Positions 10,569 through 18,926 of a stretch of 20,599 nt of DNA are shown piece after piece. Below the pieces are notes generated by a model that saw only the letters and a program-made list of their open reading frames with translations, was not told the origin of the DNA and searched no databases. Origin of the DNA: a virus (Duplodnaviria > Heunggongvirae > Uroviricota > Caudoviricetes); the IMG/VR virus record IMGVR_UViG_2541047903_000005. One strand, given 5' to 3'. Numbering within the stretch: position 1 is the stretch's first letter; each line of letters starts with the position of its first letter. The translations under genes and the position numbers were made by a program.

Positions 10569-10613
10569 AAAGAATAAAAAAATCCCGCAGTGATCGCGGA
10601 CAGGAACTGCGGG
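10569..10613 (-). terminator. Intrinsic terminator for the minus strand, immediately after the I stop codon
   Basis: On the minus strand an 8-bp stem (CCCGCAGT/ACTGCGGG, + coordinates 10584-10591 and 10606-10613) is followed by ATTTTTTTATTCTTTTT; the 14-nt loop is long but the T-tract is strong. Confidence 0.45.
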
Positions 10614-10672
10614 AGAGTTACGAAGATTAAGTGTAAGGAATTATTCTTATATCACGACAAAAAAATTAACGC
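10576..10672 (-). ncRNA. Candidate ~95-nt small RNA transcribed antisense to the tail operon, in the I-J spacer
   Basis: Bounded by a sigma70-like promoter (10679-10706, minus) and the minus-strand terminator (10569-10613); no ATG-initiated ORF on the minus strand in this interval; AT-rich. Boundaries are approximate and the call is a hypothesis from sequence only. Confidence 0.3.
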
Positions 10673-10678
10673 AGAGAA

Positions 10679-10706
10679 ATTATACGCGCCACAGTCAGTT
10701 TGTGAA
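10679..10706 (-). promoter_or_regulatory. Sigma70-like promoter on the minus strand: -35 TTCACA, 16-bp spacer, -10 TATAAT
   Basis: Minus strand reads TTCACAaactgactgtggcgcgTATAAT; + coordinates -10 = 10679-10684, -35 = 10701-10706; perfect -10 hexamer and 5/6 -35 match. Confidence 0.4.
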
Positions 10707-10778
10707 AATGTGAAGATATTCAGAATTTTTATGCCATTACCGGTTTTAACCAACAGGATTATCGGTGGGCATGAAAGA

Positions 10779-10814
10779 AAACCCCGGTATCTGCTGATAC
10801 CGGGGTTTCTCTTT
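10779..10814. terminator. Strong hairpin with U-tracts on both sides (bidirectional terminator-like) upstream of J
   Basis: AAACCCCGGTAT-ctgctg-ATACCGGGGTTT, a perfect 9 to 12-bp stem with 6-nt loop, followed by TTTCTCTTT on + and preceded by GAAAGAAA (T-run on the minus strand). Confidence 0.5.
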
Positions 10815-10911
10815 AGCATGGCAGAAATGTGTTTCATGCTTTTCGGGCGAAGGATATCCGACTTCTGTACGGAATGGCAAGTGGCGGTTAATTTATTCAG
10901 GGGAAGGCTGT

Positions 10912-13900
10912 ATGGGAAAAGGTGGCGGTAAGGCACACACGCCTCGTGAGGCGAAGGATAATCTCAAATCCACGCAGATGATGAGTGTGATTGATGCGAT
11001 TGGTGAGGGACCGATAGAAGGTCCGGTGAAGGGACTGCAGAGTATTCTGGTGAACAAAACCCCGCTGACGGACACGGACGGTAATCCCGTGATACACGGT
11101 GTGACTGCGGTCTGGCGTGCCGGGGAGCAGGAGCAGACACCACCGGAAGGCTTTGAGTCCTCCGGAGCTGAAACCGGACTGGGCGTGGAAGTGACGAAGG
11201 CAAAACCGGTGACGCGCACCATTACGTCCGCGAACATTGACCGCCTGCGGGTTACCTTCGGGGTGCAGTCACTGGTGCAGACCACGTCAAAGGGCGACCG
11301 TAATCCTTCCTCTGTCCGGATTCTGATTCAGTTACAGCGTAATGGCCGCTGGGTGACGGAAAAGGATGTCACCATTAACGGCAAGACCACCTCGCAGTTC
11401 CTGGCCTCGGTGATTCTGGATAATCTGCCTCCCCGGCCCTTTAACATCCGGATGGTCAGGGAGACGGCGGACAGCACCACGGACCAGCTGCAGAATAAGA
11501 CGCTGTGGTCGTCATACACCGAAATCATCGATGTGAAACAGTGCTACCCGAACACGGCCATTGTGGGGCTGCAGGTGGATGCGGAGCAGTTCGGCGGCCA
11601 GCAGATGACGGTGAACTACCATATCCGCGGTCGCATCATCCAGGTGCCGTCAAACTATGACCCGGAAAAACGCACGTACAGTGGTATCTGGGACGGCAGC
11701 CTGAAACCGGCATACAGCAACAACCCGGCCTGGTGTCTGTGGGACATGCTGACTCACCCGCGCTACGGCATGGGAAAACGTCTGGGGGCGGCGGATGTGG
11801 ACAAGTGGGCGCTGTATGCCATCGGGCAGTACTGCGACCAGACGGTCCCGGATGGTTTCGGGGGGACCGAGCCGCGGATGACCTTTAATGCGTACCTGGC
11901 ACAACAGCGTAAGGCGTGGGACGTTCTCAGTGATTTCTGCTCTGCGATGCGCTGTATGCCGGTATGGAACGGCCAGACGCTGACGTTCGTTCAGGACCGT
12001 CCGTCGGATGTGGTGTGGCCGTACACCAACAGCGATGTGGTGGTGGATGATAACGGCGTGGGTTTCCGCTACAGCTTCAGTGCCCTGAAGGACCGGCACA
12101 CGGCAGTGGAGGTGAATTACACCGACCCGCAGAACGGCTGGCAGACCTCCACGGAACTGGTGGAAGACCCGGAAGCCATACTGCGCTACGGACGCAACCT
12201 GCTGAAGATGGACGCGTTCGGCTGTACCAGCCGCGGTCAGGCCCACCGTGCCGGGCTGTGGGTGATAAAGACCGAACTGCTGGAAACGCAGACGGTGGAT
12301 TTCACGCTCGGGTCACAGGGGCTGCGTCACACACCCGGTGACATCATTGAAATCTGTGATAACGACTATGCCGGGACCATGACCGGCGGACGTGTCCTGT
12401 CCATCGATGCCGCCAGCCGTACCCTGACGCTGGACCGGGAGGTGACACTGCCGGAGACCGGCACGGCCACTGTTAATCTGATTAACGGCAGCGGTAAGCC
12501 GGCGAGCGTGGCCATCACCGCACACCCCGCGCCTGACCGGATACAGGTCAGCACCCTGCCGGATGGTGTGGAGACATACGGTGTGTGGGGACTCTCCCTG
12601 CCGTCACTGCGTCGTCGCCTGTTCCGCTGTGTCTCCATCCGGGAAAACACGGACGGCACCTTTGCCATCACGGCGGTGCAGCACGTACCTGAAAAAGAAG
12701 CCATCGTGGATAACGGGGCCCGCTTTGAGCCGCAGTCAGGCACCCTGAACAGCGTTATCCCACCGGCAGTGCAGCACCTGACGGTGGAGGTGAGCGCAGC
12801 TGACGGTCAGTATCTGGCACAGGCGAAATGGGACACGCCGCGGGTGGTGAAGGGTGTGCGCTTCAGTCTGCGTCTGACCAGCGGAAGCGGAGAAGACAGC
12901 CGTCTGGTGAGCACCGCCATCACCGCAGACACGGAGCACCGTTTCAGTGGTCTGCCGCTGGGGGAATACACCCTGACGGTGCGGGCCATTAACAGCTACG
13001 GCCAGCAGGGCGAACCTGCGACCACCACCTTCCGGATTAACGCGCCTGCAAAACCCGCCACCATTGAGCTGACGCCGGGGTATTTTCAGATAACGGCGGT
13101 ACCGGTGCTGGCGGTGTATGACCCGACGGTGCAGTTTGAGTTCTGGTTTTCGGAAAAACGCATCACGAACACGGCACAGGTGGAAAAATCTGCCCGTTAT
13201 CTGGGGACCGGCAGTCAGTGGACTGTCCAGGGCGATCGGATTAAGCCGGGGATGGATTTCTGGTTTTATGTGCGCAGTGTCAACCTGGTGGGCAAGTCTG
13301 CATTTGTGGAAGCCAGCGGGCAGGCCAGCAATGATGCAAAAGGGTATCTGGAATTTTTCCGTGGTCTGATAGATGAGACGCTGCTGGGGCAGGCACTGAA
13401 AAAGCGCATTGATGCGTCAGCCCTGCGATCGGATGTCACTCAACTGGAAGAGAATATCGGACAACTGGAAGAAGACATCCGTCAGCGGATGGACACGGAT
13501 ATTGCGGAAGTGACCCGGAAAATCGGGGAGGCGGAAAACAGCCTCACGCAGCTGGTTGCGAAAAAGAATGAGGATCAGACGCTGGCCATCGCGCAGGTGA
13601 GTCAGAAAGTGGACCGTGTCAGCAGTGAAATCTCACAGACGGTCAGTCAGAGCAGTGAGGAAAATACCCGACAGATAGCACAGGTCCGTCAGTACGTGGA
13701 CAAAAAGCAAAGTGAAATCAAGCAGACAGTCAGCCAGGGCCAGTCAGAAAACGCCCGACAGATAGCACAGGTCCGCCAGTACGTGGATAAAAAAGGGAGT
13801 GAAATTACCTCGACCACGGATAAAAAGCTGGGTGACCAGGCCGTGACCATACAGCAAATCCAGCGGGTTCAGTCAGACACGCGCAATGAGCTGAATGCCA

Positions 13901-14712
13901 TGTATATGCTGAAGGTGCAGAAAACAAAAAACGGTATTCCCTATGTGGCCGGGATTGGTGCGGGGATTGAGGATGTTGATGGTCAGACCCTGAGTAACAT
14001 TCTGCTGCAGGCCGATCGCATTGCGATGATTACCCCGGAGAACGGCAACACCACGCCGCTGTTTGTGGCGCAGGGGAATCAGCTGTTCATGAACGACGTG
14101 TTCCTGAAGCGACTGTTTGCGGTGAGCATCACGTCATCCGGCAATCCTCCGACGTTTTCCCTGACGCCGGATGGCAGGCTGACAGCCCGCAATGCGGATA
14201 TCAGTGGAGCCATCACGGCGAATACCGGCACGCTCAATAATGTCACCATTAACGAGAACTGTGTCATCAGAGGGAAACTGTCTGCAAACCAGATTGAAGG
14301 CGATCTCGTTAAAACAGTGGGTAAGGCTTTCCCTCGTGACTCCCGTGCACCGGAGCGTTGGCCATCAGGAACCATTACCGTCAGGGTTTATGACGATCAG
14401 CCGTTTAACCGGCAGATTGTTATTCCGGCGGTGGCTTTCAGCGGTGCCAGACATGAGCGGGAGAACAGCGATACTTATTCGTCATGCCGCCTGATAGTGA
14501 AGAAAAACGGTGCTGAAATTTATAACCGTACCGCGATGGATAATACGCTGGTTTACAGTGGTGTTATTGATATGCCTGCTGGTCGCGGCCACATGACGCT
14601 GGAGTTTTCTGTATCAGCATGGTGGGTAAATGGCTGGTATCCCACAGCAAGTATCAGCGATTTGCTGGTTGTTGTGATGAAGAAAGCCACTGCAGGCATC
14701 ACGATTAGCTGA
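10912..14712 (+). CDS. J: Central tail fibre / host specificity protein J (tip attachment protein)
   Basis: 1266 aa; N-terminal and central regions match recalled lambda gpJ ([91 protein letters not shown]); includes a coiled-coil expansion and a C-terminal receptor-binding region. Confidence 0.95.
13624..13830 (+). repeat. In-frame tandem repeat, 87-bp unit, about 2.3 copies, inside J
   Basis: Unit starts at 13624, 13711 and 13798 (agtgaaat...); encodes repeated 29-aa units SEI.QTVSQ...[13 protein letters not shown]. Confidence 0.75.
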
Positions 14713-14779: not shown

Positions 14780-15379
14780 ATGCGTAAATTATGTGCTGTT
14801 ATTCTGTCCGCAGTAGTCTGGCTGGTTGCCGCTGGTACGCCAGCGAGCGCAGCAGAGCATCAGTCCACACTAAGCGCCGGGTATCTTCAGACCCACACTG
14901 ATATGCCAGGAAGCGATAATCTGAACGGGATTAACGTGAAATACCGTTATGAATTTACGGACACGCTGGGGCTGATTACGTCTTTCAGTTATGCCGACGC
15001 AGAAGATGAACAAAAAACGCATTACAGCGATACCCGCTGGCATGAAGATTCCGTGCGTAACCGCTGGTTCAGCGTAATGGCGGGGCCGTCTGTGCGCGTG
15101 AATGAATGGTTCAGCGCGTATGCGATGGCGGGTGTGGCTTACAGCCGTGTGTCGACTTTCTCCGGGGATTATCTCCGCGTAACTGACAACAAGGGGAAAA
15201 CGCACGACGTGCTGACCGGAAGTGATGACGGTCGCCACAGCAATACCTCTCTGGCGTGGGGGGCTGGCGTGCAGTTTAACCCGACCGAATCCGTGACCAT
15301 TGACCTTGCTTATGAAGGTTCCGGTAGTGGCGACTGGCGAACGGATGCATTTATTGTTGGTATCGGATACCGTTTCTGA
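14780..15379 (+). CDS. lom: Outer membrane protein Lom (Ail/Lom/OmpX-family beta-barrel), prophage moron
   Basis: 199 aa; signal-peptide-like N-terminus MRKLCAVILSAVVWLVAAGTPASA; matches recalled lambda Lom (SAGYL, INVKYRYEFTDTLG, WGAGVQFNPTESV, ending GYRF); lies between two terminators. Confidence 0.9.
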   Translation: MRKLCAVILSAVVWLVAAGTPASAAEHQSTLSAGYLQTHTDMPGSDNLNGINVKYRYEFTDTLGLITSFSYADAEDEQKTHYSDTRWHEDSVRNRWFSVMAGPSVRVNEWFSAYAMAGVAYSRVSTFSGDYLRVTDNKGKTHDVLTGSDDGRHSNTSLAWGAGVQFNPTESVTIDLAYEGSGSGDWRTDAFIVGIGYRF

Positions 15380-15483
15380 CAACAGACGCCGATTTATCTT
15401 CTGTAAATATTGTTATGATACGCAGGTTCATCCGCCTTATGGGGTGAACTGCGTTTGAGGAAACGTAAAGTTACACTGTCCTG

Positions 15484-15518
15484 AAGCCCGTGGCGTCACT
15501 GCTGCGGGCTTTTTTTAT
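15484..15518 (+). terminator. Intrinsic terminator downstream of lom
   Basis: AAGCCCG-(14-nt loop)-CGGGCTT followed by TTTTTTATT. Confidence 0.55.
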
Positions 15519-16665
15519 TGGTGGAAAAGTATGACAGTAAAAATTTCTGGCGTGCTTAAAGATGGCACAGGAAAACCAGTACAGAACTGCACCATTGTGC
15601 TGAAGGCCAGACGGACCAGCAGCACGGTGGTGGTGAACACGGTGGCCTCTGAAAATCCGGATGAAGCCGGGCGTTACAGCATGGATGTTGAGTATGGCCA
15701 GTACAGCGTCACCCTGCTGGTTGAAGGTTTTCCACCTTCACATGCCGGGACCATTACCGTCTATGAAGGTTCCAGACCAGGTACGCTGAATGATTTTCTC
15801 GGTGCCATGACGGAGGATGATGCCCGTCCGGAGGCACTGCGCCGTTTTGAGCTGATGGTGAATGAAGCGGCACGTCATGCCGGAGCGTCATCACAGAGTG
15901 CAGCGGCGGCAAAGAAATCCGAAACGGCAGCAGCCTCATCGAAGAATGCAGCGAAAACCTCAGAAACGAATGCAGCTAACAGCGCACAAGCGGCAGCGGC
16001 CTCGCAGACTGCATCGGCAAACTCCGCGACAGCAGCCAAAAAATCAGAAACCAACGCGAAAAATAGCGAGACAGCCACAAAGGCCAGCGAAAAAAACGCA
16101 AAATCCAGCCAGACGGCAGCGAAAACCAGTGAGACGAATGCCAAAGACAGTGAAGCCAACGCAAAGGTGAGCGAAACAGCGGCGGCGAACTCGGCGAAAG
16201 CATCGGCAGCAAGCCAGACGGCAGCAAAAGCAAGTGAAGATGCTGCCAGAGAATACGCAAACCAGACAGCAGAGCCGTACAGATATGTTTTACAGCCGCT
16301 GCCGGATGTGTGGATACCCTTTAATGATTCGCTGGATATGATTACGGGCTATTCTCCGGGTTATAAAAAAGTGAAGATTGGTGATAATGTGGTTCAGGTT
16401 GCCAGTGATAAACAGGTTAATTTCAGTCGCGCATCAACGGCAACATATATCAACAAATCTGGCGAACTGAAAACGGCGGAAATTAATGAGCCACGATTTG
16501 AGTGTGATGGCCTGCTTATTGAGGGGCAAAGAACGAACTTCTTCCCGAACAGTACAGACCCTTCGAAGTGGAATAAGTCAACTTCACTGGACGTTACAGA
16601 AACAGGCACAGATAGTTTCGGGTTTAATTATGGCCGGTTTGTCGTACAGGATTCGATTGTTGGTA

Positions 16666-16670
16666 CAAGT
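16666..16670. repeat. Target-site duplication CAAGT (left copy) flanking IS2
   Basis: CAAGT directly abuts the IS2 end at 16671 and recurs at 18002-18006 next to the other end. Confidence 0.8.
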
Positions 16671-16681
16671 TGGATTTGCCC

Positions 16682-17587
16682 CTATATTTCCAGACACCTG
16701 TTATCACTTAACCCATCACTGGCCCACTGCCGCAGATATTCCCGTGGCGAGCGATAACCCAGCGCACTATGCGGATGCCATTCGTTATAATGCTCGAACG
16801 CCTCTGCAAGGTTCTTTGCTGCCGTTAACCCGTCTGGTTTGGGCATGATACTTATGTAGTCACGCTTTATCGTTTTCACGAAGCTCTCTGCTATTCCGTT
16901 ACTCTCCGGACTCCGCACTGCCGTGTTCTTCGGTTCAAGTCCCAACATCCTGGCGAACTGACGTGTTTCATTCGCCCGGTAGCATGAACCATTATCCGTC
17001 AGCCACTCCACTGGAGACGCCGGAAGCTCGCTGCCAAAGCGGCGTTCCACTGCTCCCAGCATGACGTCCTGTACTGTTTCACTGTCGAAGCCACCCGTTG
17101 TGACCGCCCAGTGCAGTGCCTCACGGTCACAGCAGTCCAGCGCGAACGTGACCCGCAGTTTTTCTCCGTTATCACAGCGGAACTCAAACCCGTCAGAGCA
17201 CCATCGCTGATTACTTTCTTTCACAGCCACTCTGCCGGTATGTGCCCGTTTCGATGGCGGTACAGCGGGTTTTCGCTCAAGCAACAGCGCATTCTGGCGC
17301 ATGATCCGGTAAACACGTTTGGCATTGATCGCAGGCATACCATCAAGTTCTGTTTGTCTGCGAAGCAGCGCCCATACCCGACGATAACCATATGTGGGTA
17401 GCTCTCCGATAACATGGTGTATACGGCGAAGCACATCCGTATCATCCGTGTGACGGCTGCGGCGGCCGTCCTTCCAGTCATCGGCTCGTCTGAGAATGAC
17501 GTGCAACTGCGCACGCGACACCCGGAGACAACGGCTGACGAAGCTTACTCCCCATCCCCGGGCAATAAGGGCGCGTGCGCTATCCAC
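16682..17587 (-). CDS. insD: IS2 transposase OrfB (InsD), DDE integrase core
   Basis: 301-aa ORF recognised as IS3-family transposase orfB; normally expressed as an InsCD fusion by -1 frameshift. Confidence 0.9.
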
Positions 17588-17910
17588 TTTTTTGCTCGCC
17601 CATATTCAACGGCTTCTTTAAGGAGTTCATTTTCCATCGTTTTTTTGCCGAGCAGACGCTGGAGTTCTTTAATCTGCTTCATGGCGGCAGCAAGTTCAGA
17701 GGCAGGAACGACCTGTTCTCCGGCAGCCACAGCAGTAAGACTTCCCTCCTGGTATTGCTTACGCCAGAGAAATAGCTGGCTGGCTGCCACACCATGTTGC
17801 CGGGCAACAAGGGAGACCGTCATTCCCGGTTCAAAGCTCTGCTGAACGATAGCGATCTTTTCCTGTGTAGTACGCCGTCTGCGTTTCTCCGGCCCTAAGA
17901 CATCAATCAT
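17545..17910 (-). CDS. insC: IS2 transposase OrfA (InsC), helix-turn-helix DNA-binding protein
   Basis: Starts [25 protein letters not shown]; the ORF-track ORF extends upstream to 17955 but the recognised start is the Met at 17908-17910. Confidence 0.85.
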
Positions 17911-18001
17911 CTGTTCTCCAATGACTAGTCTAAAAACTAGTATTAAGACTATCACTTATTTAAGTGATATTGGTTGTCTGGAGATTCAGGGGGCCAGTCT
18001 A

Positions 18002-18006
18002 CAAGT
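18002..18006. repeat. Target-site duplication CAAGT (right copy) flanking IS2
   Basis: See left copy at 16666-16670. Confidence 0.8.
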
Positions 18007-18926
18007 AAAGCGCATACCATTATCGGACTGTATTCGAGTACCGGAGGGGTTGATACTTCAGGGGACGAAAAGCATGTAACTATATCCTGTCGGGTAAAAA
18101 GTGAAGTTGATAATATCGCCGTTCGTATTTTATTTGAACATTATGATGGGGAGGTAAGGACATCAATAGGAGCAGCAAACCTGAACCTTACCACCCGCAT
18201 AATTAGCAAGACAGGTCAGACAAGCCGTGTTACAGCAAGGTCTGTTAAGGATGATGCAACTGGCTGGATATTTTTTGAGGCTACATTAAAAGCAGATACA
18301 ACAGAAAATACGGTTGGTGGTTTTGTCCAGTATTCTCCGGATACAGGGCAGATGGTTGCATCAGGGGATTATCTCGATGTAACCACTCCACAGATTGAGG
18401 CTGGTACAGGCGCATCATCTTTTATTGTTACGGGGACGGCACCGGTAACGCGGGCAAGCGATATGGTTACAGTTCCGATTAAGAATAATCTTTATAATCT
18501 TCCTTTTACGGTTCTTTGTGAGGTACATAAGAACTGGTATAAAACGCCAAATGCAGCACCGCGTGTTTTTGACACATACCGGCATCAGGCAGATGCGGGG
18601 ATCGTAATGGGGTTTGGTTCATCAGGTGGGTACGACGGTTTTCCGTATTGTGATATAGGTGGTTCAAACCGACGAATAAATGAAAATGCCGGGCTGGAAA
18701 AAATGCTTATTGGTATGCGGGTAAAGTCCGAACGGTCCACATGTGTAGTCAGTAACGGTAAGTTAAGCAGCGAAACTAAAACCAAATGGGAATATATCCG
18801 GAGTACAGCAACCATTCGCATTGGTGGACAAACTACAGCAGGATTACGCCATTTATTTGGGCATGTGAGGAATTTTCGTCTCTGGCATAAAGAGCTAACA
18901 GATGCGCAGCTTGGGGAGGTTGTGGA

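Follow-up and report, generated by a model that had tools for sequence, protein, structure and literature searches.

A lambda-like prophage that lies next to ompW/yciE/trp carries, behind J and lom, a gene whose reading frame is broken, which raises the question of what interrupts it, how recently the interruption arose, and whether it is of consequence. The window, by which we mean the whole 20,599-nt stretch of DNA that was analyzed (IMG/VR record IMGVR_UViG_2541047903_000005), covers the late-gene half of the prophage only. The original prediction named the gene as a side tail fiber, and this is supported by its place behind J and lom, where stf lies in lambda, and by the presence of a Stf N-terminal anchor domain. 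Upstream, the 16 head and tail ORFs are all open, and a single IS2 element is the sole disruptive lesion in the window. We consider it very probable that IS2 transposed into this stf-position gene, splitting a 687-aa fiber, and that the event is recent, restricted to one lineage, and neutral or nearly so. Coordinates are collected in Table 1.

Table 1. Coordinates of the interrupted fiber gene, the inserted element, and neighboring genes in the window
Feature	Position	Strand	Description
J	10912-14712		lambda-like tail module
lom	14780-15379		between J and the fiber gene (start 15531)
5' fiber fragment, codons 1-380	15531..16670	+	anchor, Ala/Ser/Thr/Lys-rich shaft, conserved linker, first ~85 residues of D1
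Left target-site duplication copy, CAAGT	16666..16670	.	sequence reading
Complete IS2 isoform	16671..18001	-	1331 bp; IRR end 16671, IRL end 18001; transposase genes antisense to the fiber gene
IS2 orfB (InsD/TnpB, 301 aa), DDE integrase core	16682..17587	-	open; Pfam rve, rve_3, HTH_21
IS2 orfA (InsC/TnpA, 121 aa)	17545..17910	-	protein identical to K-12 InsC1; Pfam HTH_Tnp_1
A6G slippery window, intact	17587..17593	-	read from sequence; role per PMC3299598
Right target-site duplication copy, CAAGT	18002..18006	.	sequence reading
3' fiber fragment, codons 381-687 and stop	18007..18930	+	rest of D1 and whole D2; severed from the start codon
92-aa ORF, phrog_1361	18927..19205	+	GTG start overlaps the fiber stop (GTGA); conserved partner of this fiber type
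98-aa ORF, phrog_1443	19215..19511	+	conserved small ORF, after the 92-aa ORF

The span 16666-18006 consists exactly of IS2 and both copies of CAAGT. Read in IS orientation (reverse complement), the element starts with TAGACTGGCCCCC and ends with GGGGCAAATCCA. Published features of IS2 include imperfect inverted repeats of ~41/42 bp, an IRL that starts with TA, an IRR that ends with CA, and an A6G window at which a programmed -1 frameshift joins OrfA to OrfB (PMC3299598). The element in the window matches this description, with TA at the start of IRL, CA at the end of IRR, a length of 1331 bp, and imperfect terminal inverted repeats in which a 33-nt core is 79% complementary. Both ORFs are open, with orfB overlapping orfA in the -1 frame, and both exceed curated IS2 cut-offs: orfA scores 275.8 bits against NCBIfam PRK09413 (IS2 repressor TnpA; cut-off 229), and orfB scores 695.8 bits against PRK09409 (IS2 transposase TnpB; cut-off 597). 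A 5-bp repeat flanking the element would be expected by chance at a rate of ~1/1024. Exact ends, length, repeats, and profile scores thus bear out the prediction of a complete 1331-bp IS2 with a 5-bp CAAGT duplication. Transposition of IS2, a member of the IS3 family (IS2 group), proceeds by a copy-out-paste-in route via a minicircle (PMC3299598), and the copy in the window inserted by a 5-bp staggered cut that duplicated CAAGT after codon 380. Because it is structurally complete, this copy is presumably still mobile.

The element was called simply IS2 in the original prediction, and comparison with other copies refines this to an isoform. Aligned to IS2A of E. coli K-12, it is equal at 1274 of 1331 positions (95.7%), with 57 substitutions and no indels, and is assigned to IS2 as an isoform on this basis, for which identity above 90%–95% was required. 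OrfA is 100% identical to InsC1, and OrfB has 17 residue differences from InsD1. Copies 100% identical to the one in the window occur in many E. coli chromosomes (ExPEC) and on F-type plasmids, where the RefSeq label for the isoform is often just "IS3 family transposase." The isoform appears to be active in ExPEC lineages. IS2 is a multi-copy element in E. coli (median of four places per genome) and the source of the window is a draft scaffold, which raises the concern that an assembler, for which repeats are classic trouble spots, put IS2 into a fiber gene that is intact in the real chromosome. Such an assembly or scaffolding artifact is very unlikely, since it would not leave IS2 with exact termini at either end and a precise 5-bp duplication around it, and the same 5-bp signature is seen for six other IS2 insertions in finished genomes.

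Excision of IS2 and one CAAGT in silico produces one continuous ORF of 687 aa (2064 bp) that starts at 15531, as had been predicted. Continuity of the frame is weak evidence by itself: one in three frames is open by chance, and the removal of 2, 5, or 8 extra bases also keeps the frame and gives a protein of ~687 aa. On these grounds the two halves might be regarded as naturally separate genes, or as an old fixed pseudogene, with a coincidental match in frame. Uninterrupted alleles of the empty site refute the idea of separate genes. The joined sequence corresponds to one annotated CDS of E. coli O7:K1 CE10 (WP_015674652.1) with one SNP in total, located at 15868 in the 5' part of the gene, and no SNPs across the 2593 bp that separate the insertion site from the end of the window. 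At least 80% of the fiber gene is present in 290 of 5,426 complete E. coli genomes, and in nearly all of the best 60 matching genome records listed it is uninterrupted. Essentially all of the 120 top protein clusters listed are ~687 aa, including one cluster with 1063 members. The gene is also intact in the isolated phages PhiR49_2 and ev243 (97%–98% identity), where it is annotated as a side tail fiber or tail fiber, and depositors named the homolog in PhiR49_2 and PhiR40_1 "side tail fiber protein." A structural model described below places residue 380 inside a continuous beta-sandwich, and the junction is absent from every other genome searched; both also speak against these alternatives. 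We assign these alternatives a negligible probability, and the reading of one fiber gene split by IS2 is retained below.

The intact fiber combines domains of different affinities. Residues 1–131 correspond to Pfam phage_tail_N (PF08400; E value 7.5e-68, 227 bits, cut-off 26.6), and residues 1–94 match PDB chain 9e7m_Ta, a "Tail fiber protein" (E value 2.5e-48). These are followed by an Ala/Ser/Thr/Lys-rich shaft (residues ~110–247) that is predicted to be helical in a low-confidence model. The next domain, D1 (~290–535), resembles the head spike fiber Rcc01080 of RcGTA (PDB 6tb9), with an E value of 4.3e-5 for the single sequence and 2.4e-41 for a profile of the 33-member family, and NCBIfam GTA_spike_fiber is matched at residues 329–530 (72 bits, cut-off 36). 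The terminal domain, D2 (~537–687), has a score of 18.8 bits against Pfam Laminin_G_3, below the threshold of 27.6 (E value 0.0018, covering only the last 52 profile positions); the same profile is matched by 22 of the 33 family members (best E value 5e-13). The family profile for D2 also matches C-reactive protein (9.5e-6), sialidase CBM40, and the BoNT Hc domain.

Structure prediction for the distal fiber depended on the alignment that was supplied. Single-sequence AlphaFold2 on the distal 531 residues produced a pLDDT of 37, and a model built on an alignment of 33 sequences reached 88.7 (pTM 0.86). The diverse sequences in this alignment came from an exhaustive search of representatives, whereas the top 120 matches from a word-indexed search were all near-identical E. 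coli proteins. For D2, Foldseek searches with this model identified CBM40 and C-reactive protein (CRP) at TM scores of 0.55–0.60 (target length), together with laminin LG, neurexin LNS, and viral "Concanavalin A-like" proteins. Residue 380 is residue 133 of the model and lies within the continuous, confidently predicted beta-sandwich of D1. The insertion is therefore after codon 380 and ~85 residues into D1 (~297–535), not at the border between shaft and domain. The expectation that the fiber is truncated after its anchor and shaft is accurate in that both are kept, but the break falls within D1 and a stub of this domain is retained. Removal of a LamG-like C-terminal domain also needs qualification: profiles and predicted fold both support this character for the last ~150 residues, but this protein on its own is below the Pfam threshold, and D2 is best described as ConA/LamG-like at the level of profile and fold only. 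Together these domains make the fiber a mosaic in which a lambda Stf anchor is joined to an RcGTA head-spike-fiber-like domain and a tip of LamG-like character, and no Tfa chaperone accompanies it.

The interrupted ORF continues into IS2 as far as 16757 and encodes 408 aa, of which 380 are from the fiber and 28 are encoded by the IS. Translation from the native start would yield only this protein, composed of the docking domain, the predicted-helical shaft, the stub of D1, and 28 IS2 residues. Absent from it would be the whole ConA/LamG-like tip and the greater part of the head-spike-fiber-like domain, through which the fiber is expected to bind the host surface. From a 408-aa stub that lacks the distal binding domains, we infer that phage induced from the lysogen would be without functional side fibers and would still be viable by means of the intact J. 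In lambda, stf is dispensable and readily lost (PMC2762979). For purposes of annotation, the two fragments and IS2 should be recorded as one disrupted fiber gene.

There is no tfa chaperone gene directly downstream of the fiber gene, where the 92-aa and 98-aa ORFs are found instead; neither ORF has a match in Pfam or NCBIfam. In CE10, AF57, and AR_0013 the annotation places the 92-aa ORF immediately behind the intact gene, and homologs of this ORF occur in N32 (IS2-disrupted) and AVS0096. The overlap of its start with the fiber stop suggests translational coupling, such that translation of the 92-aa ORF may depend on translation of the fiber, and a polar effect of IS2 on both small ORFs is possible. 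The original prediction also raised the ability of IS2 ends to affect adjacent genes. This is true in general, as IS2 ends can activate neighbors and an outward -35 element is located in IRR (PMC9330008). In the window, IRR (the 16671 end) faces left, antisense into the 5' fiber fragment, and the downstream ORFs lie beyond IRL; activation of these ORFs by a fusion promoter is not expected because the outward -35 points away from them. Matches to the promoter consensus near the IS numbered three, compared to 4.5 expected from shuffled sequence, and a terminator scan was likewise not above shuffled sequence. A plus-strand match across the left junction (16660–16688) was considered as a fusion promoter and rejected, since such matches do not exceed the shuffled expectation.

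We searched genomes and protein records for other carriers of the insertion. Across the 5,426 complete E. coli genomes, neither IS2/fiber junction was found. A single contig on record encodes the chimeric 408-aa ORF, namely KE701794.1 of GCA_000460515.1, and over 11,069 nt this contig and the window are identical. The duplication is perfect, the IS is identical to many other copies, the flanks are essentially unmutated relative to intact alleles, and there is a single known carrier, from which we conclude that the insertion is probably recent and private to the lineage of one isolate. The suggestion that it was possibly recent is upheld. The insertion site also provides a clean natural marker by which this isolate can be told apart from CE10 and other close relatives.

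The best candidates for shared carriage turned out to have other structures. N32, the top match, was rejected as a carrier of the same insertion; its IS2 is in a downstream small ORF of another prophage. FDAARGOS_1260 and FDAARGOS_1259 have the closest backbones (99.8% identical upstream over 15.5 kb) and were rejected because they have a different fiber module. FDAARGOS_1260 (L007, NZ_CP069438.1 190914–194615) occupies the same ompW site, and its fiber module is itself a pseudogene. A near-identical backbone with a different fiber module indicates that mosaic exchange took place precisely where stf begins.

An independent IS2 insertion was identified in AVS0096 (NZ_CP076344.1, locus L003:3711–5041), in the opposite orientation, with the duplication GTACA, 3 bp upstream of the insertion in the window and corresponding to window positions 16663–16667. 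This IS2 is a different variant, with 59 differences from the copy in the window. The fiber allele is 94%–96% identical, the prophage is at another chromosomal site, near potAB, and the insertion is also private to one genome. Further IS2 insertions occur in homologous fiber modules of N32, Z0117EC0051, AR13438, ECOCN22, and LST200A (loci L002, L004, and L010–L012), and IS600 occurs within the same fiber gene in AF57 and AR_0013 (loci L008 and L009). All seven IS2 events (the window and six others in finished genomes) have a 5-bp duplication, and six out of seven are antisense to the fiber gene.

These events bear on whether the insertion was neutral. Two independent hits within 3 bp in a 2-kb gene have a chance of ~0.3% by our own post hoc estimate, which makes a local target preference plausible, and IS2 is reported to choose its targets non-randomly, in connection with DNA curvature (PMC3299598). 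Loss of Stf in lambda is selected in structured environments (PMC2762979). The site could be a genuine hot spot for IS2, or lysogens could repeatedly be selected for loss of the side fiber or for an effect on neighboring prophage-end genes, perhaps reversibly by precise excision. The private AVS0096 insertion, of a different variant and in the opposite orientation, and at least five further IS2 insertions plus one IS600 insertion in homologous fiber modules fit this explanation. We nevertheless judge it improbable: only two events are known at the site, both singletons, and no same-orientation junction exists in the 5,426 genomes. A metagenome scan for IS2 ends within 15 bp of the left flank also found none. 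The outward -35 faces antisense into the 5' fragment, promoter matches are not above expectation, and IS hits are expected to accumulate in dispensable prophage genes even without selection.

A more specific form of the argument, drawn from two private IS2 hits 3 bp apart in opposite orientations and at least six further IS hits in the fiber module, is that the nonamer GGTACAAGT in D1 is a true IS2 hot spot and, more broadly, that disposable side fibers of E. coli prophages are repeatedly inactivated by IS3-family elements under selection, in a way that may be reversible through precise excision. We hold this to be improbable as well. The AVS0096 event suggests that target choice here may not be random, which fits a neutral hit at a preferred site and also leaves room for selection. 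For the insertion in the window, the simplest account is a neutral or nearly neutral event in a dispensable prophage gene. The fiber module gathers IS3-family insertions in many strains and would be convenient for studying IS2 target choice or the loss of accessory fibers.

Several other features of the prophage were recorded. The 15.5 kb upstream of the fiber gene is collinear with CE10 and differs by 46 SNPs, 34 of which fall in a patch at 12582–14334, the C-terminal half of J. This patch looks like recombination in the region of the tail tip protein that binds the receptor. In lambda, tail genes I and J are adjacent; here 343 bp (10569–10911) with no convincing ORF lie between them, and the interval is unannotated in CE10. 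The gap between lom and the fiber gene contains a strong terminator-like hairpin at 15483–15512 (13 pairs followed by a T run). At the right end of the prophage are a gene with a YkgJ-type CxxCxxCC cysteine cluster (19629–19961, minus strand) and a VapA/VapB-family gene (PF05526, R_equi_Vir; 20147–20599, plus strand). Both adjoin an ompW remnant, yciE/yciF, and the trp operon in CE10 and on contig KE701794.1, and they are possible cargo ("moron") genes. No Rfam family was identified anywhere in the window.

Overall, a well-known element has inserted into a dispensable prophage gene, an ordinary and well-documented kind of event that leaves current understanding unchallenged; only the possible hot spot at the site and the recurrence of IS hits in the fiber module are mildly new. 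The element shares with IS2A of E. coli K-12 MG1655 (insC1/insD1) its length, asymmetric ends, OrfA, -1 overlap with A6G, rve DDE core, and 5-bp duplication, and differs in its nucleotide and OrfB residue changes and in belonging to an isoform common in ExPEC and on F-type plasmids. Other IS insertions in fiber modules of lambdoid prophages are alike in being IS3-family elements that have clean target duplications and disrupt either stf or the small genes behind it. They differ in position, except in AVS0096, and none has the junction seen in the window.

Comparisons of the fiber itself extend to two systems. D1 is shared with Rcc01080 of RcGTA and with the phage baseplate and fiber proteins Pa193 gp46 and E217 gp45 (fiber residues ~290–535). 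Unlike in the RcGTA fiber, the domain here belongs to a siphovirus tail, where it follows the anchor and shaft of a lambda Stf and has an extra LamG-like domain after it. No similarity was found between the distal fiber and lambda-type distal Stf, in a comparison that left out lambda Stf itself. The parallel drawn in the original prediction with the stf frameshift of laboratory lambda (PMC2762979) is a fair analogy, not homology of the lesion. The two cases are alike in the J-lom-stf position, a homologous N-terminal domain (PF08400; 9e7m_Ta), a dispensable accessory fiber, and an intact J, but the lesion in lambda PaPa is a 1-bp frameshift and the lesion here is an IS insertion.
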